A stretch of 63,266 nucleotides of DNA, counting the filler. It is 11 parts of 11 records of this genome, joined end to end, with 100 filler letters (N's around TTAATTAATTAA, not from the genome) between each part and the next. Parts side by side here need not be neighbours in the genome. Positions count along the whole stretch, not along the records: positions 41,322 to 45,382 come from SRR15195285_255; 10 more parts are not named here. One strand, written 5' to 3'. Within the stretch, counting starts at the first letter, position 1, and each line of letters opens with the position of its first letter. The notes under the pieces are model-generated. The model searched no databases and was not told the origin of the DNA. It saw nothing but the letters and a program-made list of their open reading frames with translations. Of this stretch, positions 41,150 to 57,543 are shown one piece after another. The position numbers and the translations under genes were made by a program.

Positions 41150-41494
41150 CTGACATGTCAAGGTGGTACGATTCAGAACAGCGCTACTAGAATTTGCTCG
41201 TGTGTGTGTGTGTGTGTGTGTNNNNNNNNNNNNNNNNNNNNNNNNNNNNNNNNNNNNNNNNNNNNTTAATTAATTAANNNNNNNNNNNNNNNNNNNNNNN
41301 NNNNNNNNNNNNNNNNNNNNNAGACAATTGATATATTCGATTGAATGTCTTAGGGATCCCTACTGCATGACTGAATCTTTTTGCAGTGAATCGAGGATAC
41401 TCGGTAGATCAGTTAGGTCTACACATTGGCGGCGGGCCGGCGGCGGTGGAGCCGACAACTGACCAAGGACTGTTCAATTTGAAATTTAGTATTT

Positions 41495-41546
41495 TGATAT
41501 AGGACATAAGGCCTTATGCCCTATAATTATCCTATGCCCTATATCA
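41495..41546. repeat. Nested palindrome/inverted repeat, possible transposon terminus
   Basis: 28-bp palindrome TATAGGACATAAGG|CCTTATGCCCTATA (41498-41525, 1 mismatch). TGATATAGGACATA (41495) is also inverted to TATGCCCTATATCA (41533-41546). Confidence 0.7.
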
Positions 41547-42619
41547 GTGGCGTACGTCTCGAGAACTACCCGGACCACACATGCATCGGCCCTCATCACC
41601 ATGAATAGGTCTAAAGATCCGGCGATGATAAGCCTAAGGCATGTGTCGCTAACACGACGACGCTACCAAAAGCTAAGGGAACGTATGGAGCGGCTCGCAC
41701 AACGCGAGCGACCACACCAGCAGCAACGTTTTGAGTGGTATGTGTGTGGGTGTGGGTGTGGGTGTGGGGACGTAATACCTCAAAATAATGCATGAATCAT
41801 TCGAGCCATTTCGGAATTCAAATTGTTTGCTTATAAAGCACAGCAAATTTCGCGAATGTGAATTGGAACTATGATCACGTCTTCCTCCTGTTACAGGGCC
41901 ACGAGGTGTCGCTTGCTCTGATCGATCAACTCGGAAGACCACGTGGCGCAAGGGGCAAGGCTGATTTGCAACCGCACGCTACAGCATCTGATTCACCACC
42001 GTAGAGAAACACTATCACATCATTGCGATATCGAACATGGCAAAGTAGTCGTAAAATTGCGTTAGTGAATGATGCTAGTGAATGACACGTTTTCCCATCG
42101 TCCACGACGCTTGAACTCTCATCGCTGGGAACTGGCCACGAATCAGCAAGGTTCCGGCAGCTGTCGTGGGCATAGCGTCGGGCGTAGCGTACATTCTGCC
42201 GTGCCTCCGGTGGGTGCGCAGGAGCATGTGGTACTGGAGCCGAGCGTAATGATGTCTCTGTTCTTTCTTACTGGTAGCTTTGCCCTGTCTGCCCCATCAC
42301 CACTGGCTGTACAGTGGAATTTGCACTCAAGATCGACAACATCGTCTGGACGCCACATTCAGGCACGCTTTCTACGTCACGTGGTCAATCTTATACTAGT
42401 ACAATCATGCTCCGTCCGCCTTCCGTGGTCTTCACTAGCTGGACGTCCGGAGCATAAATTTGGCATAGAATATCAAATCTGAGGCCCGCGGGACGGACGC
42501 CATGTAATCAAACGAGTCGAACGCTGAATCTGCGGGTAGCATCGGGCTCAGCTGCGCCAACACATGCACCACGAGCAGCGAAACGTTGTTGCTAGTACAC
42601 AACCTCCGGTCCCGTTGTG

Positions 42620-45262
42620 CTAGATCGGCATGACTGCGAGATCACTCTCGTCGTCCGACTTGAGTGCAGCGTTGCTGACACTAATGTTGCTATACGTGAC
42701 TGTCGAGTCCGTCGGGCACTCTCCGACGCACCGCGTTCCGTCCAGCCAGCTCATGAGTACCCAGCTCTTGCCCCACAGCTGGAAGGTCAGTACCATGCCC
42801 TGATTCAGTGCTGCACTCATCTTGGCGAGGTATGATCGAGTACCAGTAGCATTGAACGTGAACTTCGATCCGTCCTGCTCGACTGTGTTCTGAATCTCAA
42901 GCAAAACGTCTCCCGTTGTATCTACCACGAACGTCTGTGTGTGTGTGAACGGCCGCCGAGTGTCGATGGTACACGTTGCTGCAGGGCAAAGCGCGTCGCG
43001 TGGCGAGAATCCGGTGGGTGGGAAAGGGCCGGCACCATCGCACGAGCGAATATAGCCACCTGCGGCGTCTGAGCACGAGTGCGGCGTGACCTTCATCACA
43101 TGCTGATTCCCCTCGAGGGAATCCATCTCCCAGCAATCCACGCCCCACACCTTGTTGCTATCACAATAGTAATTGCCCTTCAATGACGGCGCTGGCCGAC
43201 CGTGGATGTCGTAGCCCGGCATGGCCACCCAGTACAAAGCTGCGTTGCAAGAGCAAGGTACGTGACTCAGATCAACCGTGTAGCGCAATGTCTTCCCCAG
43301 CAGACTGAAGTGAACATAGCTGTTTGAGTTCATCTCGCCATCGCGTGACACCCAGATCCGTGTGCCCTGTGGCGTAGAGTTGTTCGAGTAAGTGCCATGC
43401 GCCAGTGTGAGCGTGCGTCGATCCACAGAAATCTGCACAGTGCCTGCTGACTCAGCGAGGGCGACGATATGGTGTGATGTATCGATCCCGTTGACTGCGA
43501 CGATGAAAGTGCCCTGGTCGACGCTGGATGCAGCCGTGTTTGTGTCGTCATCTGTCTTGACCGTTTGCTGCGGTGTCTTCTGCGTCACGCTCCCATGCCA
43601 CGCGCTGACGTTGACGGTCACGCTAACGTGTTCGAACTCCCGCGTAAAGACCCCAAGACTCGCGTTGACGATTGTCATCGGACCCAGCGGCGCCCCCAGC
43701 GGCTCGTCATCTGATCACCACAGCATGTGCACGCAGCATCAAGCGTAGCTACGAGCGAATTTGGCAGAGGTGAGGTGGCGGCGGAGCCAGACGGGGACAG
43801 GAATTTGGGAGGCTTACACGCTTTGAACCACGGGAAGCTTGACTCCACTCCCATCCAGCCTGTGCCCATCGCGACGTACGAGTACTGCTCTGCTCCCACC
43901 AGGAACGCTGCTCGCACTATTCACACGCACATCAGCAGCGACTGAGTATTGCAACGGCAAACTTTTAAGCCACGGCACAGGTGCGTCATTGCTTCACTGC
44001 ACTCACAGAACTCAAAATTGGGATCCATCGCGTTCGCCACCTGCGTGTGAACCATCGTTGGGATGCCGGCTCTGGCGTAGTTTGCTGCAGTGAAAATATC
44101 ATCTGTGAACCACACATAGCAGCGCACAGAGTGTCGGATTCAGGTCGCAAAGCGCGGAACCAATGAGACCAAGCAGTCAGTTAAGACACAAGCAGCAGCT
44201 GTTGGTCGTCGTCGTCCAACTCATCCTTCTGTTTCGGCGGCGGCGGCGGCGGCAGCCTCACTCACCGATGCAACATCGCTCGCGGGACTTGCAGGCCGAG
44301 GCGAACTTGTCCTTAGCCGGGCAAAAGAATTCATTGAAGTACCATGCCTTGGTCTCCGCCAGCACCTGCGTCTGCGCTTTATGAAACGTCGGGTCGGGCC
44401 AGCGCTCTAGTGATTTGATCGACATGATCGCGTATTTCCCCTTGCTCGCGAGAAACCGCGTGATGTTCTGCATTGCGTTCACCCAGCAGGTCTTCGTCCT
44501 TGCCTTGCGGGCCGCCGAAATCTTGCAGCCCATGAAGTCGCTGCCGTCAAGCTCTTTCGGCATCACCCAACGGTCAACTTCGTCGAAGAAAACGCCGCCG
44601 AGCTGCGCGGATGGGTCAACGAAGGACGCCAGGATTGTGTCCTGATAGTAGCGGACCATGTCAGGCTTGCAGAGGTCGTAGATGGGGCCGCGGCCGCGGT
44701 CGGTGTCGGAGTAGCAAACCTTACCATCGTCGCCCGTGAACCACAGCGACTCGTGCTTCGAGGAGTTGAAGTCGTCCCACCACCAGCTGTAGTAGCCCGT
44801 GCAACAGCCGTAGAAGCCGGTGTAGGCGCCGACGAACGTGGATGGGTCAATCGCGTGCACCTTGGCCGCGTCGCTGGCAGTGCAGTTCTCGGTATTGGCG
44901 TAGCCCGGTTTGTTGTCCTTGCACCTGGCCCAGCCCTCGAACCCACTGCCCGTGCAGTTGCTCCAGGTGCACGCGGCGCCGGCCTTCGTGCACGCACCTG
45001 GGTACTGCTGGCCCTGCGTCCAGGTCACAGGGTACTTGGCCATCAGCTTGGCTGCGCCTGGGCTGAAGTCGGAGCTGCCCTGCCCCGAAGCCCACACGGG
45101 TAGTGACTTCCAGCTCCACGGCCACCACGGCTTCAGGCCGTCGCCACCGTCCGCACCGTCCGCCGGTAGCAGTTCGACGACGGGGCTGCTGCCTGTGCCC
45201 CCTGCCTGCATCGACGCGATGAGCAGCAACCGGCCGTGGAGTAGCAGCAGGCCAGGCTGCAT
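42620..45262 (-). CDS. Secreted two-enzyme glycoside hydrolase polyprotein: GH168/GHL15-like (putative fucanase) + GH7 (endoglucanase-type); 4 exons
   Basis: Signal peptide present. Introns 44265..44103, 44006..43917 and 43817..43711 keep frame. Module 1 reads 'WSWKSLP', 'GVFFDE', 'NEFF', 'AAFLVGAEQYSY..GTGW', 'YDEPLGAPLGP', 'FTREFEHVSV'. Module 2 has GH7 motifs 'TVDLSHVPCSCNAALY', 'YCDS', catalytic 'EMDSLEGN', 'TPHSC', 'IDTRRPF', 'GMVLTFQLW', 'MSWLD', 'VTYSNI'. Confidence 0.85.
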
Positions 45263-45713
45263 CCAGCCCGCACCCGTGTGGAGATGGGAGAGAGTGTGTG
45301 TGTCTGGTTACACTGGCATGTTACGGGTTGTATCATTATCATGTTCGAATTACCGCCCGTTCTGAGATCCGGGGTTTGGGCCNNNNNNNNNNNNNNNNNN
45401 NNNNNNNNNNNNNNNNNNNNNNNNNNTTAATTAATTAANNNNNNNNNNNNNNNNNNNNNNNNNNNNNNNNNNNNNNNNNNNNCAACGGTGGGACGATACT
45501 ACTAGTACGTAGTGGCCGCCTAGGAATTCCTCGGACGGACAGAGAGACGGACAGACAGAGAGACAGCGAGGGTGGCATCAACCGCTCCATGTGAGAGTGA
45601 TCAACTGGTGCAGAGACGGGCTCACCTGAGGCGCTCGCTGCGGCGAGTGGTGTGGGGGGCCCGCAGAGTGAGAAGGGAGGTGGGAGGGAGGAGGGGGCTG
45701 TGGCCGGTAGGAG

Positions 45714-48700
45714 ATGGAGCGGACTAAGGAGATGTTGGCGAAGAGCTTCGGTGAGCGCCTCTATCGCTCGTCGATCGCTGCTAGTAGCGCTTGTATCGCT
45801 CCTGTACAGCTCCGCTGCAGCAGCTCATCTATAGCTACTGTGCAGCTGATATACAAATCCTATATAGGTCCTCTGCCAGTCCTGTTTCGTCCCTCTATAG
45901 CTCATCTAGAGCTCCTATGCGCGATCCTCTATAGCTCCTCCATAGCTCGTATGGCTGCGGTCGAGCTGTCGATAGCATCTCTGTCATGGCGGCTGGTGGC
46001 TGACGGCGCTATCTTCCGCAGGCTTGCTCCCAGCCGGCTCGGTGGCGCTGACAGCAGCAGGGACTATGGTCTGGTGTGCTGGTGGCGCTATCTGCGTACA
46101 GGCTTGCCTGGGGCCAGCGGCCACAGCCGTGATTAACTCAGGCGTGCTCGGTTTCGGCGGAGGCAAACATCGAGATATGGACCCAGCCTTGTCGCGGCCG
46201 TCTGAACGGCGACGTGGGCGTCGCAAAAGAAAGGCGTGGTGGTTGACAGCGACAGAAAGTGAACTGCGTAATGACTCAGATCGGCATCGCGCACGGTTTG
46301 GGGTCGACCGCGTCGGTCTGAACTCCCTGGTTTGCATTTTGCCAGATGTGGCCACAGTTGGTGTAGCCACGGCCGTTGCATGTGGTGTTGGCAGTCGTGC
46401 CGCTGGCGCTGCAGCCGTTGTGGCAGTAGTCTGCGTCGCTGGCCTGCGCACCAGCATCGTCGTGCAAGGCTTGGAAATGGGAGAGTCCAACGGCCTGGTT
46501 GCAGCATTTGCGCCAGACTTGCCTGTCGAGGCAACATCGGTTCGTGTAGGCCGGGTCGAGCTCAGACTGTCGTGGCGTTTGCAGTTCGGGCTGCACGTGA
46601 AGGATGTGTCGGTCGAGCTCCGGCCGTATGACCTCGGGTCGAAGGCACTTCATTATGCTCGACTGCGTCGTCGGATCGAGCGACGAGCAGTGGATGCTCA
46701 CAAGGCCAGGCGCCGACTTGATGATTTGGAAGAAGAGCAGCGCTTTATCGCACAGCGGGGCAACACGTGGTGGCTAGGGCAGTCGCCTCAGTCGGGGATC
46801 TACAAAGTAGTCACCAGCTGGTGGCATCCACGAGGCGCTCGCGTTCGCAGAGTTGCTAGCGGAGAGTCAGTCGTTCTTGGATACCTTGGTGTATTTGACC
46901 ACAGCGTTGGTCAAATGCTCCGCCTGGGTGGCGTCGCGGTGGCTGTAGCTGCAATTGCTGGCTCTTGCATGTGCTCTTTGCGTGGAGGTGACGCGAAAGG
47001 TTGCCGAGAAGCCGCTCGGCAATCTGCGAAGGCCGTCAGCGCCACCGGATTGATAGCAGCGTTTTTCGCCGACCGGATTGTTGCAGCTGTTTTGGATCGT
47101 GTGTATATCGAGGTCGACCGTGTTGATTTTAGCTTCACAGATGGAGAGCACATAGCTTGTGTGACGTGCGACGAAGTTCGATGGGGACGGCTTGTGGACC
47201 CAACAACACTAACCGGGCGTACGTTTTGGCAGCGGTGGATCTGGAGCACCTACGGGCCTCTGCCATCTTTACATAGCCTCAGAACCAGCTCAGTAGCATT
47301 CTCAGTTGCCGCGCAGAATATACCGGCAGACGCATGCTTGACGGTGGCACCGTCAATAGCAGAGGTGAGCGTTGTAGCGGCGCACGCATCGGCGCAGGCA
47401 AGTATTGAAATTGGGTTTCCGGCAATCAACGTGACCTCCAGTGGACGCCACACAATGGCCGCACGGAGGTTGCGCCAGCTGAGGTCTGAGTTGTTGCGTG
47501 GCAGCAAGGTGATGCAATTTGGCCTTGAAAGACTCTGGTCACCACAAGAGACTGCGTTGCGCCGATGGCAGTACGCCATTTGTTCTGTTCTGATTGATTG
47601 CCAGCGTCGTGCGGAAAAAGGCACCATTAGTACGGAGCTGAAAACTCGCGCCTTGAAGTATCCTCAGCGTAGGGCTGCACGGCTATGGAGCTATGCATTC
47701 CGCTGCGTGAGAATGGAGTTGCTGCGAGCGCAGTACGGGCGCAGCAAGCTTTTGCAGACTACTGTTTCGGAACCCGTGGCACGAGGCCCGGACGTCAGTA
47801 GGGATTCCGAACGGATCGGCGAGCTGGAAGACCTTGACCTCGACGATCTTCACGAACAGGCTTTGGCCGCGGGGGCAGAGCCCTCTCGCCTCAGACTTGC
47901 TGAGGACAGCCCCAGCCCGCGTGACGCGCTCATCTCCCTGTTGCTGGGCGCAGAGCAGGCGTATCCCATATTGCGGTCTGACAGACGTTGGTGTATTCAG
48001 ATTGGCACAGCTGAAGCAAGATTTGTGGACACTGGTGACGAAGCCGAGGCGACCACTGTCACACTCTCGGCAAAGTCGCTCCGGAGTGTGCAAACTCGCC
48101 GCGAACCCTTCGGGTCTGCGCTTCCGTTAATGGCAGTAGATGCGACCGTTGGAAAGCTGAGTTGTAGTTTCAATTCGTTTCGTGTGCTGCAAACCAACGC
48201 GCACGTCCTGACGGCCCGGTCTGCCAACTGTTTAGAGATTACAATGAACTCCTCGCACGACCTGCGAGCTAGGATGGGCGCGCTCAAGGTGTCACTAACG
48301 CCAGACACTTTGCACACCGCTCTGTCGATCTACAGCGAGTTTGACATGGCTGATGATGAGTATGTTCTCACACTAGTACGAGAAAATGCATTCCGAACGA
48401 ACAATGTTTCTTACTTGTCGGAACCCGTTGTGGACGAGGATCATATTGGAACATTTCGTGAAACCCGGTGGTTACGACATCGACACCGACCGCAGGTGGA
48501 CATCAAGATTGATTTACCAATCATCAATATCGGCAGCGATGATACAAAGCGAATCCTCGAACTGGACCTCGGCACAGTGAATGCTGGCAACACATCGGCC
48601 ACTCTACGGGACCTGTTGACCAGCGCCGCGCAACTGGACGACACCAGATACAACACAGTAGGCTGTAGGTGGGAAGGGGCAAAGGCGACTTTCGCAAGCA

Positions 48701-51700
48701 AGACCTCCGGTGGCCGCCAGCAAGTGTTTGAGGGCTTTGGTGGCACAGCTTCTGTTCAAATTTGCGCTCTCTCGGCCGACTACATGTGGGCACAGAAGTG
48801 CCCTCAACTACAGCTGTCTATCAAGCTTGAACCACTTGCGGCCAAAGCAACACGATCGACCGCTGCCGGGCTTATGGATCTGACGCTTGCCGTGCATCGA
48901 GCACTGTTGGACGGTGAATCCCTCATGGTTGCGCGGGGCGATGTGGTTGAAGTAACTCCGCCGAGCTTGGGGCGATTCGCACACACGGCACACTTGGTCC
49001 GATCACCTGAGTCAGCACGGTGGTGCTTGCGGCACGTGGCTATTGAGCCTCGCGAATGGACCTTCTCAATCTTGGACGAGTGCTCTGCTCGTCCCATGTT
49101 GACGTTTGCTTTCGATGTTGACGATCTTCGCCTACAGCACTTTAATACGCAGCACCACAACTTGCATCTCCAGCTCAAGTTGCATGCATACGCATACAAC
49201 ACGTCCGTTGTTGCTTGGGAACCTATCATTGAGCCGTGGACAGCACGACTGACTTCGCTGCAGTCAAATGATGAAACACACGTCAGATTTAACGGGGACA
49301 AGCTCAATATCAACTTCTGTCCGTCGCTGTTTCGCAGTCTCACGCTTCGGCAGTCAAAGCAAAGCTCAAGCTCAGGCGATGTGCAAACTTGGCTGGTGAA
49401 TTACACAGGCACTGCCATCAGGTACAGAAACGTATGCTCATTTGACTCCCACGGCCGAGCCCTGGCGCGCGACGTCCAAAATCATCAGCAACATTGCCAG
49501 CTGGAGGATGGGGCGAAGGGATTCCTGGACATGGTTGGCCCCTCTGGACCTGGAGTTTCGTTTGATCAGGGCTTGGCAGTTGAGTTTCCTGATCTATTGT
49601 GGCATGACGCAGAGTTCACTGACGTGTCTCGCGAAGGAGTGCAGTCCAAGCTTATTGGCGGGAGTATGGCTGGTATCACTGTTGTCTGCGTCACCGAAGT
49701 TCAGGATGACGGAACACGAGTCATCACACTATGTTCGGGTGTCAAGGTTGATAATCAGACAAATCGAGACATCGAGTTTGGCTTGCGTAGGTGTGATGTG
49801 GCAGGCACCGTGGATCAGCACGTGCGGTCTGCGATGGTGGTGCCGAGCGAGAGCACTGGGTTCTTTCCTGCAGCACTGTGGGCTGCGAATCGGCACGACA
49901 ACTGCTCCTCACAGCTGGTGGTATTCCGGACGTGCGATGGAGGAGATATTTGGACTGATCCGTATGATGTACGGCAACCTATTGCGGCTACATCTGCGGA
50001 GCTAGTTGTTTGTAACGAAGGCACCGAACGCCAGTTCACTGCTTGCCTGTCTACAACACCGGGCTATGCTCCAGCTGGCAAGCTGAGCGTCCTGACGCTA
50101 TTCAACTGTTTGGATGTACAGAACGACTTTGCTTTCCCTCTTGAGCTGCATTTTTTTGAAGAGGAAGTTCCCAGCACCCAGCCGACAGTTCCGTGCGCTG
50201 CAGGCAATCCGACAGTGCGCCCCCAGCGTCGTGCACTGGTCGAGCCTGGGTCACGGGTTGACGTGCCAGAATGGGATCCGAAAAAGGATGCCTGGATGGC
50301 CGTGGCGAACTGCGAGGGCGCTATCTCTTCTCGAGTTTGTGTATATCGCGCACATGACTCAGACGATCAAAGCTTAGCGTCTGACGTGGTCCTGCGTGGT
50401 GGCCGATTTGCTTACGGCGGGATCCGTGCGGAAGATTCTAGTAAACTGAACACAGACAGCGGAATGGAACACGCTAGCTGTATGCCGCTTTCACTACACT
50501 ATGAAGCACAAGGAATCACGGCGGCAACAGCAGCAGATGCATCTCACCTGGTCAGACTATCGTGCTCTTACCTTGTAGTCAACAATACCCCGTTGCCATT
50601 GGTATTGCGTTCTCGGCACGCGAAGCACAGCGATCGAGATGTCGTTGTTGCTCTTCCAGGCTGCGATCTGACTGCTGACGATCGGCCCACCCCTATCCCT
50701 TTCACCAGCCACGGGAACGTTGAAATCGGAAAACGTGTCGATGTGCTCGGCACTGAGGAAGTTGATTCAGACCACCCGGACGCCATGATCCTGTCTCTTG
50801 TCTGCGGCAAAACACTGCGAGCCGGACTGCTTGACAGGCTAACGATGGACGTCCCTGATCCGTATGTTAAGGTCACGTTTGCACCCAGACACGCTACAGA
50901 TAATAGTACTACAGACAAACCGCAATACGTCTTCGGGGACCCAGTTCACATCGGTCGCACAACAGCGATACAAAATAGTGCGGACCCGGTGTGGAACGAA
51001 CGATTCTTAGTCCGTGTACCTCCCGATGGGGGCATGATCGCATTGAAGGTTATGGATTTCGACCGCTGGTCGGGTGATGACTCAATTGGCGAGGTCAAGC
51101 TTGATGTAGAGCACGGAGCCACGATAGAGCAGACCACAGTTGACGTGCTTGGTCTAGGTGGAATGAGAAAGGGCCAACTTGAGATTGGGTTGCAGAAAGC
51201 GACCGGCTGCAGCGTGCCGCCCGTTGGGCTTGTTGTAAGCACATGGGGATCGCGAGTCGTCTCAACAGCCCAAGCAGGACCACAGATGCTGCCGGTGTCT
51301 TTAGGACTAGATGATCTCGGCGTCACAGTGGTGCCTTTGAATAGATCTTCTGGGGCGCCGCACGTAGTGTCCATTGTGCCTCGGTATCGTGTGGATAATA
51401 TGTCGCGCCACAATGTGATAGTGGCTGTCGGACAGTGCGATGGTCATCAGATACGCGTCTGTGCAGGTGAGTCTGAGCTTGTTGGACTCAGATCTGGAGT
51501 AGACCCCAGGTTGTTCTTCAACGCTGGACAGCTGGACGACGGCAGCTCGTCTGCGTGGTCCCGTGGCGTTGTGGCCACTGATGGCCAGTCTGATTTAGCT
51601 GTCGACTCGACCAGAATCATGTCCGGCGATGTCAAGCTTGACGTGCGATACGAAGTTCACGGCGGAACGGGTGTGTTCACTGTTCAGGAGGGAACGCCAG

Positions 51701-54700
51701 CACTTGTTGTTGAAAATTTGGCGTTCGACCAGGTGTGGATTGCAAAAGACTTGGCTGCCACAAGTCGACGCCACAAGCTCAAAAGACGTACGACGCAGAG
51801 CACTAGGCTATCGAGTTCGCGAGGAGAGACGACCAAATGGATCAGATTGAGTAAGACTGAGCGATTTTGCTTCCATGAATGGGATTGGCACACAGAAACA
51901 CATATTCGGCTCAAAACATGCAACGGTCAAAGCCACACTGTTGATGTCAGCACCCTTACTGATTCCAGCTCTGATGAATGGTCTTGGACCACTGCAACGG
52001 GGGAAACATTATGGCCACAGGTCCTCGTGGTCAACAACGTCAGGCTGCTACGGTTGGGCAAGACAGCTGTGCGACCGCGCGGTCCGGGCATCGAGTCTAT
52101 GTTTAGGCTGAATGCATCGCTGCCAGGAGTGGGCCTGTCAGTCATCGGTGACCCAAAACACGGCCGTGGAGCAGAGCTTCTGTACGCAAGTTTCAGCAGC
52201 GTGGCATTACATCACCTGGAGAAGGATGGTAGGCTCACCACCGACTTGTCAGTCGGAAAGTTGCAGGTCGATGAGTACATCAGTGGCGCAGACCGACCTA
52301 GTCAGCGGGACATGATTGCTGGGCCTCTTGTGTCGGAGAGACAATCAAGCCTGTCTTCAATGCTACAGATTCGCACAGTACGTTTATATCAGGAAGGGCT
52401 GGCTCTGTACGAGTCATTTGTGGTGAAGACGCGCCCAATGTTCTTCAACTTGAAATGGTCGACTTTGTCGCGTCTGCTGCGTGAGCAAAGCGTGCAGCAT
52501 CTTTGCCGTGCGCTAGTTTACGCAGAATGGAGCGTCGATAGGCGACCACAGACTAGTACTAAGTCCCTTCTTCACTCTGTAGAGGTCGATCCTGTGAGTG
52601 TTGCGGTCAATTTTGACATGAAAGGATGTGCTAACGGAAGCAATTTGTTGAAGGTTTTAGGGCTGCACAAATATGCACAGCAGCTAGAAGCTGGCGGTGA
52701 GCAAGACACAGGAACGATTCAGAGTCAGCGGCTAAACCTGAGCGACATCTTCTACACGCCACAGCAGATACTGTCGGATGTAGCTGCCGACGTCCTTGGG
52801 CAGGTCGCCACATGTCTGACGTCATCGTCATCGGCTTCAGTTGCAAGATCAGAGTCTGCAGTAGCCATGCACCAGAAATCAGGCAGCACACGTTCCATGC
52901 GCACTGCAGGTGCGGACAATTTCGCACCAGAGGATGCACTTGTCCTTGCGACCGAACCACCGGATATGAAGATCAATGAAATGGTGAACAAAGTGACCGA
53001 CACAACGCCAGGGTGGCGGCATCGCGCTCAGTCCACAAGAAACATTCGCTCAGACAGCCAGCTATTTGCTGAACGCTGGCCGCGCGTTTTTGGCCTGAAC
53101 GGCACTGTCAAGGATTACAGCGTCAATAATGTAGTTCTGTGCACGCTTCTTCAAAAGAGTGGATGTTCCGAAGCAAGCGAACTCGACGAGGACTGTCTGA
53201 GCATCGTTGCTGTCGCAGACCCTGGAAATCCAAAGAGTCGATCGTTGATGCTTTTGACAAAACACACGATTTTTTTCGCGAAGCCGGTCGCCCACGGCAA
53301 CCGATTACACAACCATCGCAGTCGTGTACGTGATATCGGAACCTTGGAAATGGTGTTTGGTGATGAGATCACTGTACGAGACATCCAAGACCTGACGGTA
53401 GAGATTTCTACAGGCACTCTGCTTTTACGGCTGTCAGGTTCAAAACGTAGTTTCACCACTTACGTCGGCGAGAGGGATGAACCGCTCGAGACTGAGTTCA
53501 AACTCGCAGAATTCTTCAACCACCTGGTTGGGTTGCTGGAGAATATCAGGGCAGTTGCCGCTCAGTACAGACGTTTTGGGGGGGCGTTGTTGCCACACAG
53601 ACTGACCACTCATCATTCCGACACCACCAGGGGTCGCAAGAATGGCAGAGGGAACAGTGCACCTACCACAGTTACTTTGACGATACTTGATGCTAGCTGG
53701 GAAGATCTTTGCACTCACGGGCGTCGATACAGCGCGTGCAAAACCTGCAGACGCTTGAGACTGAAACCAAATAGGCCCAGTAGCGACGATTGGTTTTGCG
53801 AGCTGCAGGTGGGCAAACGTAGACCGCGTAAACTCTCGGTCGGCAAGCAAGTCACGTTTGACGTAGGTGGTGGTCCACAATGCGTGGTGGCGTTGAAGAA
53901 CGCAAGTACTGTCGGAGCCAAGTGCATAGGCACAACTGAACTTCGTGTCGACAGCTCTAGTGTCGAGTCCAGTCCAAAGGAACAATGGTGGAGCCTTTCG
54001 CCTCTCCCAGGCAGTAAGGAGACACCAGGCGCGAAAGTGAAGATGTGTATGTCATGCTCACCTCGCATTGACGACACTTTATTGGATGTGCCGAGAGACG
54101 CAACGCTGCTTTCCAATATGTTCGATACGTGCACGGTGTTGCGGATAGATATCAAATCCATTCGTCTGCCGACCAGCGCAGACGCTGCGCATGGCGAAAG
54201 GCTCACCTGTGCGCTGAAAATCGTGCGCGACGGCCTGACTGTGGCAGAAAAAGATGCATTTGTGATAGTCTCAGCTACAGAGCAGCGCTGTGAGGCTCAT
54301 GGCCTGGAACCAGTTCTTTTTGATCTCACGGAACTGAGTGCTGCTGGTCAGGAGTATGCGAAAATGTGTGTGCATGCGCAACTGCTGCTGTATGGTCGGT
54401 CTACAGTTGTGTGCGAAGAAAAATATCCGTTCCCTGGGGCCCAGATTGGATGGGCAAGAGAGGAGGACCCAACAACAATTGAGCAGGAGGTCAACTCGAA
54501 GGTTCGAGTGGCGCGGCGAGGAGACATCGACGTGTCAATGAAAGTGGACGCGATCCGGACTTCTTGGACCAATGTCGATTTGCCTTCGTATCCTCAGTTA
54601 GTTGACTACGAGATTACGCTCAGGACAGGCGAACACGGTGATGCAGGCACTGACGCAAGCATCTTCGTACAGTTGATTGGCGATCAAGGCCACTCACCTC

Positions 54701-57543
54701 GTATACCTCTTCAACTACGTGAGGAGGACCTGAGGACTGGGGGCATTGTCCCTGGTGGCACAAACATGTTCACAGTCGCAGCGCCGCAGGTCGGCAAACT
54801 ACAGCGGCTACGAATTGGCCACGACAACACCGGGAACCCAACGATAGGGCGATCGCAAGCGTGGTTCCTGGAATCAGCGGTGGTTGAACGTGCGGCATCG
54901 TCCATCGATTCAGGAAGTGACGACGAGCCCACGGCTGAAGACTATGCTGTGGATGGTGTCGTTTTCCCTTGCGGTCAGTGGTTTGGTCGACCCTTGCCAG
55001 TGCCCACATCAGGTATGACCCGTGCGGAAGCAAGGTTAAAGAACCCCGGCTTCTATGGCAATCCATTGGCATATACGGGCGATGTTGCCTTGAGTCGTGA
55101 GCTACTGGCGCCATACATGGGCCCAATCTGTCTACTTGAAACTTATCTTGTGACCGTGTCAACTGGCTGTATTGGAACAGACGGGCTGGTTTCGCTCACT
55201 CTGTTTGGGTCCGATGGAGACAGCGGTGCACATGAACTTCGACACCGCACCAAGGGTGGACAAGTAGACGCCGGACGACGAACATTTGAAGCAGGAGCCG
55301 TAGAAACCTTTGCGCTGGAGTCGTTTGGTCTCGGACAACTTAGGTATATCAAGCTGACACTTTCAGCAGTGGATCGCACGAAACCAGGTGTGCTGCCAGT
55401 CTTATTTACCGGCCCTAAGCAGGGAAAGGGCGTCCGGGATGCACACACGGTCGCGGTAGAAAAACAGTTAGCTACAGGCTGGATGTGTGAGCACGTGACA
55501 ATACGAAACCTGCGAACGATGCAATGCTGGGGTTTGCCCATTCACTGTCTGCTTGCAAGCAAGGAAAACGGCGCTGGGGTAATGGATGGGCTGTCTCGTA
55601 CGATCGGGCTCGGGCCAGCTCGGCAGCAAGCAGTTTACCGCGTGACAATATGCACAGGTGATGTGGTTGCAGCTGGTACGGAGGCAAACGTGTCACTGCG
55701 AATGGTAGGCCAGAAAGGCCAGTCAGATCTAGTGAAGTTGCAACGAACCTCTAGCTCTAACCGTCAGCCCACAAAGTCGCTGGACGATGCAGATCAGATG
55801 TTTCAACGCGGGGAAACGAACGAGTTTGAACTCGAGGTCGCTGACATTGGCGCTGTTTTCCAAGTTGAGCTTTCACACGATGGCCGGGGGATTGGCAGTG
55901 GCTGGTTTGTCGAAGAAGTGCTGGTGGAACGCCTGGGGGCTGTGGTTGAAGCTGCCAAGCAAGCTGCAGACGCGCCGACGTTTGGCCAGTCTGCTGCGAG
56001 CCGATCTGGAAGATCCAGAGGCCGACGTCGTACCCACAGCTATGATATTGCAACTTCTGGTAGCCGCAGCACAAATCTTCAGAGTTACGATCGGGGGAGC
56101 ATCAGCGACACCAGAGATGAAACTCTGCCTGACTCTCGAATAGGTAGCCTGACACATCCGTGTGCTCACCACAATCTAGAGAATGACCCACGCAGTAGTA
56201 GCTACGATGACAACCGCAGTTTCAACCCCGTGTCTTATCGAAGCCGACAGACTGCCAATTTCGCGCTTGAGCCGGTGCAGACACGGTTTGTCGCACATGC
56301 GTGGGTAGAAGACTCGCCTTTGGTTGTGGAGGTTGACTTGAATGACCCCACGATAACTGTGGGTGCTGGTCGGCACTCTGTGCATTGGCTAGTTACAGTC
56401 AAGACTGGCACGATGGAGTTTGCTGCAACCACATCAGCTGTGTCGCTTACACTGCATGGGACCAGCGGAGAGGGTGGCACCCATCATTTGGGCAAGACAT
56501 CATCTCTGTACATGCCACGGAAAGGTCCATTCGCTCGCGGTGCAGAGAGTGTATTTAGCATTCGCACAACAGACTTAGGCTCGCTCACTGAGGTCACGAT
56601 CTCGCACGACAACTCAGCTATCACAACGGAACGCGCGGCTTGGTATCTAGAGTGGGTCGAGGCGATTGACGAAGGCACGGGAGTGCACTACCACTTTCCG
56701 TGTGGACAGTGGCTCGGTGGCGGGCGAACGAGACTAGAGTCAGTGGAAGACTTCAATGCTCGTTGCGGCGGGGTGGCTAACGACGGTGCTCTCTTTCGTA
56801 CTCTGACGCCACTAGAACCGGGCTTAGAACGTTACGATCCTACTCGCAGAGTGATGGAGACGGCAGAAGATACTCTCGGTACACTGGTTTTTAAGCGTCT
56901 GAGGGTGCTTGACCCTGTTTCTGAAGGTGTGACCCGTCTTGCACTCTCGAGAAAGCGAACCTACATGATCATGAGCTGTGGTACTGCGAATTCGACTGCG
57001 CATTCCAGCATCTCAACTAGTGTACACGGCTCACACAAAACCCTTTCGAATGCCAGGGCGTCCGAATCCTGGGGAAACGATGAAACGCTCAGGCTTCGTG
57101 TGTCAAACACTGCCTTTGGAAAGGCCGAGCTTAAATTAGTGGCGATGGGCAAAGAGAAAACCTTTGGCATTGAAACTACATCGTTGGTCATGGAAGGGAG
57201 GGACAAGCCCGTTCCTATTGGAGAAGCCATCATTAAGCTGACAGATGTGTTCCCTGCAGCGTTCAGTGATCGTTCACGGTTCCACAGTGTCGGTGGAGTC
57301 CATCACGCAGTGTACGAGCTGCAGTCGCGGAACAGTTATGTTGAGAGTGTAGATGCACCTCTTCGTGTAGAAATACTGATGATGTTTCTGCCGAATCGGG
57401 CTCGCAGCTCCGCGGAGTGGTCACGAAAGAACGCACAGTCACAGCTGCGGAACAGTGTGCCGGAAGATTATGACTTAAATGGGGACCTTTGGGTTGACTC
57501 GGCTGAGGACATTGATTACATTGAAGACCAAGTGTCACATTAG
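45714..57543 (+). CDS. VPS13: VPS13-like bridge lipid-transfer protein with C2 domains and four C-terminal PLAT/LH2 domains; 2 exons
   Basis: Short exon 45714-45750, intron 45751-46021 (GTGAGC...CCGCAG), then an ~11.5-kb exon. Chorein-N-like 'LPVEATSVRVGRVELRLSW', 'WQYAICSVL', 'YNTSVVAWEPIIEPW', VAB-type repeats, 'LPGVGLSVI...ELLYAS...LQVD', 'RWPRVFG'; C2 'PDPYVKV...DPVWNE...DFDRWSGDDSIG'; four PLAT starts (YEITLRTG, YLVTVSTG, YRVTICTG, WLVTVKTG). Confidence 0.85.

Follow-up and report, generated by a model that had tools for sequence, protein, structure and literature searches.

Gene model and domain architecture

The stretch of DNA analysed here (the window, positions 1-63266) consists of 11 contigs of 3.1-12.7 kb each, joined by N44-TTAATTAATTAA-N44 spacers, and genes lying either side of a spacer are not genomic neighbours. 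The gene under study lies on the minus strand of a contig 4,061 bp long (41322-45382, 56% G+C), and its product is best explained as a secreted or digestive-compartment two-enzyme protein, in which a GH168/GHL15-like glycosidase (module 1) is followed by a small GH7 endoglucanase-like enzyme (module 2), with a copy of the short motif K[ST]DD after each of them (Table 1). Coordinates and translation agree with the order originally predicted for this locus, i.e., a signal peptide, a GH168-like module, VKTDDD, a GH7 module, and LKSDDE with eight more residues. The same prediction regarded the motif as a dedicated delimiter, acting either as a cleavage signal or as a junction at the DNA level. As judged from the sequences compared here, the observation is confirmed and strengthened by independent relatives. 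A delimiter finds support, unlike its DNA-level version, and cleavage is treated in the following as a hypothesis.

Table 1. Features of the gene under study, with positions counted along the window (aa, amino acids; nt, nucleotides; pLDDT, predicted local distance difference test score)
Feature	Position	Strand	Remarks
Whole coding span, 4 exons, 760 aa + stop	42620..45262	-	GT-AG introns, coding sequence a multiple of 3, single terminal stop
Exons 1-4	45262-44266, 44102-44007, 43916-43818, 43710-42620	-	stop included in exon 4
Intron 1, 163 nt	44103..44265	-	GTGAGT...CACAG
Intron 2, 90 nt	43917..44006	-	GTGAGT...AATAG
Intron 3, 107 nt	43711..43817	-	GTAAGC...ATCAG
Signal-peptide-like N-terminus, ~aa 1-20	45203..45262	-	MQPGLLLLHGRLLLIASMQA; judged by eye
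Module 1, GH168/GHL15-like (beta/alpha)8 glycosidase, ~aa 44-441	43580..45133	-	three introns inside
FFDE, aa 225-228	44579..44590	-	D172 of 9joc aligns with the Asp of the profile's FFDE
Inter-module linker, aa 442-459	43526..43579	-	predicted disordered; pLDDT <50, residues 34-55 of the exon-4 product
Motif copy 1, VKTDDD, aa 448-453	43544..43561	-
Module 2, small GH7 endoglucanase-like beta-jelly roll, aa 460-744	42671..43525	-
GH7 catalytic E-x-D-x-x-E, EMDSLE, aa 592-597	43112..43129	-	intact
C-terminal tail, aa 745-760	42623..42670	-	low confidence; pLDDT ~46-53, residues 353-359 <50; an addition that most stand-alone GH7-like relatives lack
Motif copy 2, LKSDDE, aa 747-752	42647..42664	-	then SDLAVMPI (8 residues) and the stop at 42622-42620
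Probable 3' untranslated region	41800..42619	-	T10 loose end; open reading frames there without Pfam match

The coding sequence starts with an ATG at 45262 and comprises 2,283 nt once the three introns, all in phase 1, are removed. The exon joins (CCI|DDIF, EF|LRAAF, and KA|YDEPLG) are collinear with the proteins P0025, P0026, and P0031, in which these residues are contiguous, as well as with the exon segments present in L001 and L002. The border between the two modules falls within exon 4, whose frame is open throughout. Linker, tail, and both motifs recur unchanged in P0003, a separately deposited protein prediction that is 99% identical. In six marine metatranscriptome runs, 0.05-0.19 of the contig's sampled words were present, and in the four of these runs that were aligned to the gene's contig, RNA contigs (95-100% identity) covered parts of exons together with introns (43720-43995 and 44155-44302). 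No spliced joint or linker coverage was found in the RNA contigs of the four runs, which neither back nor contradict splicing and expression and are uninformative on cleavage.

The two glycosidase modules

For module 1, a profile built from eukaryotic sequences only (A3) matched the GH168 endo-1,3-fucanases 9joc (E 2.6e-6) and 9jof (E 3.8e-6) over profile positions 91-397, as well as the structure of a GHL15 protein (9nhf). The exon pieces of the window gave only a weak tail match with PF14885 (GHL15; 14.1 bits vs. a cutoff of 27, E 0.046) and exon 1 alone gave none, while the same model scored above the cutoff in relatives (P0025, 35.4 bits) and was precomputed for most of the top eukaryote-like matches (e.g., P0026, P0058-P0061, P0065). 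A language-model search landed on GHL15 clusters, in one of which Haptophyta was the commonest phylum, and exon 1 matched just 37 of 1.84 billion cluster representatives (E <= 1e-3). Module 1 is placed by these comparisons in a rare eukaryotic clade, which is distant from the solved GH168 enzymes (E ~1e-6, with the eukaryote-only profile), and the relatives point towards haptophyte-like organisms. Scanning metagenomes for relatives returned two loci only, and the scan of viral contigs returned none.

Eukaryotic homologues of the GH168 family had already been noted in its discovery paper (PMC7401878). The catalytic nucleophile is an Asp on beta4, D172 in WfGH168_II (PMC12534559) and D206 in FunA (PMC12534559, PMC7401878), and the acid/base is a Glu on beta6 (E243 / E264). 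The Asp of FFDE in module 1 aligns with this nucleophile and would be its counterpart. E243 of 9joc sits in an insert beside the conserved Glu of the profile's 'aEaf', where the window reads WYFNEFF, and module 1 has a plausible, putative counterpart of the acid/base Glu. Endo-1,3-fucanase activity of module 1 is a candidate function only.

The start of the module also deserves a short description. Stand-alone relatives of module 1 have a clear hydrophobic leader immediately ahead of the PWWxWSW module start, and module 1 of the eukaryotic clade opens with this conserved stretch right after the signal peptide; the window reads LKPWWPW at aa 40-46 (45124-45144). The PWWxWSW stretch contains W-x-x-W, which is the consensus for C-mannosylation.

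Module 2 matched PF00840 with 71.4 bits (cutoff 27, E 8e-20), and the three catalytic positions (E193, D195, and E198 of alignment A1) are nearly invariant across the 18 aligned sequences. The AlphaFold model of the exon-4 product had a mean pLDDT of 79 (>85 in the core) with a confident fold at residues 61-345, and the best 49 matches listed by Foldseek against the PDB were all GH7 (top E 6.6e-17), in agreement with a Cel7-type beta-jelly-roll fold. The module was originally described as a complete GH7, which needs amending with regard to its size, as it spans ~285 aa against the 435 positions of the Pfam model and is not a domain of ~430 aa with tunnel loops of the cellobiohydrolase type. 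Because of this length, and because its best sequence match is a small endoglucanase of 321 aa (8pof, E 7e-34), we assign module 2 to the small-GH7 subtype and not to the classical full-size Cel7. The closest named relative is a protein of Prymnesium parvum (45% identical).

A search for fused forms of GH7 returned only P0173 and P0174, both without K[ST]DD. P0173 (1,435 aa), a distant relative, is a different kind of multi-GH7 protein, in which four small-GH7 modules in tandem are combined with CBM1-like segments rich in Cys and with a membrane span at the C-terminus. Among the stand-alone GH7-like proteins P0013-P0016 and P0008, several have acidic-then-hydrophobic ends (…DDAVVVV, …DDGILVV, …FDEYFLI), which could be a C-terminal sorting-type tail of this particular GH7 subfamily.

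The motif within the gene

Six-frame translation of the window (126,528 codons) yields K[ST]DD only twice, in each case from this gene. From the composition of the protein itself 0.025 copies are expected (lambda), and the chance of at least two is 3e-4, a value that is uncorrected for the post hoc choice of the motif. In the structural model both copies lie in probably disordered segments, either side of the folded GH7 module. Since the stand-alone relatives of each module end before the position of the motif (7/15 of the GH7-like ones 0-3 residues beyond the last strand, and the 11 single-module relatives of module 1 right after it), the motif is an add-on to both folds and part of neither, which agrees with the earlier statement that it lies outside the consensus of either family.

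Recurrence of the motif in relatives

In order to count the motif in other proteins, K[ST]DD was fixed beforehand and searched in 170 non-window proteins, leaving out P0001, P0002, P0003, and P0021, which are the window's own or near-identical sequences. The relatives were grouped by id ranges, names being known for some of the proteins only, and the database entries derive from genes called on short contigs. Across all 170 proteins (62,957 residues) the motif was observed 7 times (1.2 expected). The 51 eukaryote-like module 1 relatives (12,743 residues, 0.17 expected) accounted for all 7 copies, and none were in the 101 other, mostly bacterial GHL15 proteins (42,519 residues, 0.92 expected) or in the 18 GH7-like proteins (7,695 residues, 0.12 expected). 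None of 200 shuffles gave 7 copies, the highest number being 5. A single Lys is followed by Ser/Thr at all 7 sites, and none of them forms a dibasic Kex2/furin site (K/R-R). The copy in P0029 is located within the barrel, as may happen by chance, and was dropped from the independent sites; in addition, the near-identical P0058, P0059, and L002 were counted once, which leaves five independent sites in linkers or tails.

Most of these sites lie between module 1 and various partners. In P0019 the motif (RKSKTDDENLAGV) lies between the tail of module 1 and the start of a GH31, and in the L002 group (VLK[TS]DDDPAAA) it separates module 1 from a sialidase-like module with FRIP and Asp boxes (BNR_2 E 2.6e-4; Sialidase-1 8du5 E 3.5e-5). 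In P0048 (HQKTDDDVSARL) it follows the end of a GH123-like module (E 1.3e-15) and precedes module 1. The remaining two sites are both in P0025, one (SLKSDDRSRLG) between an N-terminal domain with a Ser-rich linker and module 1, and the other (SWKSDDRSMMAPERARGA, then stop) in the C-terminal tail directly after module 1; the N-terminal domain had no sequence match in Pfam, Atlas, or PDB. Three of the five sites therefore lie after module 1 and two before it. A delimiter after each module is found at 2/2 positions in the window gene and 2/2 in P0025, and the motif is present at both C-termini of multi-module proteins with a visible stop, compared with 0/11 C-termini of single-module relatives. 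The idea of a dedicated delimiter is supported by this recurrence in independent relatives with different partners and in the tail that ends another two-module protein, and the claim that each module is followed by the motif holds for multi-module proteins, not for the single-module ones.

Module 1 is only 37-43% identical among the motif-bearing proteins, and the linkers (compared by eye) otherwise share nothing, being Ser-rich, Ala/Glu-rich, or Pro-rich. Between the L002 orthologues the linker length varies and LK[TS]DDD is kept. The motif is found 11-25 residues ahead of the downstream module and at 0 to >50 residues from the upstream one, and the two C-terminal tails continue for 9 and 12 residues beyond it, a comparable spacer that leads to no module. 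We read the consensus [LVWQS]-K-[ST]-D-D-[DER] as a short linear motif of this protist enzyme family, carried by its multi-module members. The five motif residues appear to be under selection, because a neutral remnant would not survive changes in linker length at 37-43% module identity, and this selection would act on the protein, as the codons differ, no repeat links the sites, and the junctions lie inside exons. Our literature search found no description of a K[ST]DD motif or of this architecture, a search with the motif letters giving only unrelated work, and the motif is probably a real, undescribed signal. Even without a mechanism, it is unusual for an island of five residues to be conserved between distant relatives whose linkers are otherwise unrelated.

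Possible roles of the motif

By analogy, a conserved motif in an exposed peptide after every unit, including the last, reads as the signature of a site recognised by another protein. In the explanation that we tentatively place first, this protein would be a processing protease with site specificity, belonging to the secretory or lysosomal route, which would recognise the motif in the exposed disordered peptide, separate the modules, and trim the C-terminal tail, making the gene one for a multi-enzyme precursor; here we infer both the binding of the protease and the position of the cut. Cleavage is ranked first because the arrangement resembles that of known precursors, because the junctions to lectins are without the canonical motif, and because the partners are of lysosomal type. 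The precursors of cyclotides and of plant proteinase inhibitors likewise have a delimiter behind their last unit, with a short tail, and are cut by a single site-specific protease. The absence of the canonical motif at both junctions with a ricin-type lectin (P0063, KLDD; P0069, none) would fit if the lectin needs to stay attached, its separation being harmful. GH31, sialidase-like, and GH123-like enzymes are kinds that are lysosomal in other eukaryotes.

Two positions of the cut can be envisaged. It could be of the Asp-N type (K-[ST]|D-D), as preferred by astacins, or Asp-specific, after Phi-K-[ST]-D. Astacins have a strong preference for Asp in P1' (PMC3186203), and astacin-like genes are scattered among non-holozoan eukaryotes, including Haptista (PMC9848320). 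With respect to the Asp-N sites of astacin, BMP-1, and meprin, K-[ST]|D-D gives an Asp in P1' with acidic residues after it, which is a formal fit only. No astacin-type protease was found in this organism, although no search aimed at one was made. Phytaspases and caspases cut after Asp, and Phi-K-[ST]-D|D fits their sites equally. A broader version, which we put forward as a speculative extension, would see in K-[ST]-D-D-[DER] the code of an undescribed Asp-directed processing system in one lineage of uncultured marine protists, i.e., a polyprotein strategy for carbohydrate-active enzymes (CAZymes), with GH168-like, small GH7, GH31, sialidase-like, and GH123-like enzymes made as secreted or lysosomal precursors and released as single enzymes.

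Several points weigh against processing. The canonical motif is present at only 5/8 inter-module junctions, the others being KLDD before the ricin-B lectin of P0063, SVDD before an unclear module in P0070, and the Pro-rich linker of P0069, which has no motif and precedes a weak ricin-like match; the lectin contrast (5/6 vs. 0/2) is not significant. The sample is small (four independent relatives and the window), every motif-bearing protein found contains module 1, and some of the protein 'ends' may be artefacts, e.g., of intron read-through. Trimming a tail of 9-12 residues would have no obvious use. Furthermore, the second copy in the window may be partly a GH7 family tail, because the stand-alone GH7-like proteins P0013-P0015 have C-tails with DD plus hydrophobic residues and without K[ST].

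Nearly as likely as cleavage is a functional motif that is not cut, with the modules staying joined and the motif serving for docking to a sorting receptor (e.g., for delivery to a digestive vacuole), for modification of its Ser/Thr, or as a small Ca-binding or acidic patch. It rests on the same evidence of conservation and disorder as cleavage, exposed tails and propeptides typically carry sorting signals, and the stand-alone GH7-like relatives have acidic-plus-hydrophobic C-tails; the GH31, sialidase-like (8du5 match), and GH123-like partners, which are lysosomal kinds in other eukaryotes, would suit sorting as well. A sorting signal, however, is not required at every junction, and the single-module relatives (0/11) would need one too. 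We know of no sorting or modification consensus that fits K[ST]DD[DER].

A less likely explanation sees the motif as a functionless relic, a piece of an ancestral linker that spread with module 1 during domain shuffling. Module 1 is indeed present in every motif-bearing protein found, some of the sites (three after and two before module 1) may be homologous by descent, and the C-tail of the window (KSDDESDLAV) resembles the linker of P0019 (KTDDENLAGV). A neutral island of five residues is, however, not expected to survive in unlike linkers at 37-43% module identity, the motif is also found after the GH7 module and at two C-termini, and the T/S swap between orthologues preserves it.

We consider it very improbable that the constraint lies in the DNA, with CTC/GTC AAG WCN GAY GAY as a recombination or cassette-joining sequence, as the original prediction had proposed besides cleavage. 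Near the motif, module 1 is fused with various partners, as such a sequence would allow, but the two sites of the window are connected by no repeat, direct or inverted, the junctions lie inside exons with no intron or mobile-element boundary at them, the distance from motif to module varies on either side, and P0058 and P0059, although orthologues, differ by the T/S swap. A comparison of codons, suggested earlier as a way of separating the two kinds of constraint, also points to the protein level, since synonymous usage differs between the three copies available as DNA (GTC AAG ACA GAT GAC GAC; CTC AAG TCG GAC GAC GAG; CTC AAG ACC GAT GAC GAC). Mere coincidence, i.e., two acidic segments sharing four residues by chance, is hardly credible and is refuted at the family level, for although the motif was picked post hoc and acidic residues are common in linkers and tails, the independent count with the motif fixed is decisive (7 copies, with 1.2 expected in all proteins and 0.17 among the relevant relatives), and the remainder of the 63-kb window holds none.

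Relation to known systems

Multi-catalytic CAZymes of bacteria and fungi likewise carry several glycosidase modules on one secreted polypeptide, separated by low-complexity linkers. To our knowledge, these linkers have no conserved short motif and the proteins act as intact multi-domain enzymes. The family of module 1 is also fused in bacteria (P0084, P0106, P0116; the matches include GH29+GHL15 and sulfatase+GHL15), but the mostly bacterial GHL15 proteins differ by the absence of K[ST]DD (0 in 101). Precursors with delimiters are found among Kex2-processed repeat proteins, the precursors of plant proteinase inhibitors and cyclotides, and the plastid polyproteins of Euglena and dinoflagellates. 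With these the window gene shares a short motif between the units and after the last one, the short tail, and the exposed peptide. It differs from them in that their units are small repeats of one family whereas its own are different large enzymes, in that their delimiters are KR, Asn/Asp-x-L, or decapeptide linkers whereas its motif contains no dibasic site, and in that their cleavage is proven whereas that of the window protein is hypothetical. The solved enzymes RsSymEG1 (PDB 8pof) and GH168 9joc, 9jof, and 8ya6 match the folds and catalytic motifs (for GH168, the nucleophile Asp) of the window modules, but are single-module proteins whereas the window protein has two modules.

Should the motif prove to be a code for processing or sorting, it would offer a way into the question of how glycan-degrading enzymes are packaged and deployed by uncultured marine protists, among them relatives of bacterial fucanases that are relevant to the turnover of fucoidan. 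Such fusion proteins could then also be split during annotation by a simple sequence rule, and metaproteomic searches would have a concrete target, namely peptides starting or ending at the motif.

Downstream region and other contigs

Beyond the stop codon, a metatranscriptome contig covering 41800-41942 has a T10 run before 41800, ~820 nt past the stop, which fits the poly(A) tail of a minus-strand transcript ending at 41800 and is a weak hint. A missed exon past the stop was considered and rejected, as the open reading frames in this region (42435-42641, 42143-42358, 41926-42267, and 42069-42479 (+)) had no Pfam match, and the tail offers no donor like the GTRAG donors of the gene.

L002, a related metagenome contig, contains five copies of one 40-106-nt element (930-968, 1854-1919, 2203-2313, 2528-2566, and 2748-2858), four direct and one inverted, which lie in apparent introns between coding open reading frames. 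This arrangement suggests an introner-like repeat, of which there is none in the introns of the window gene.

No second glycosidase was found on the remaining contigs of the window, which carry ordinary eukaryotic genes (a glucokinase, a RabGAP, a Myb protein, and an open reading frame with PLAT/C2 domains). The latter (45976-57540, plus strand) is an intronless single open frame of 3,855 codons, with three PLAT/LH2 stretches, a C2 domain, and a weakly VPS13-like middle part.

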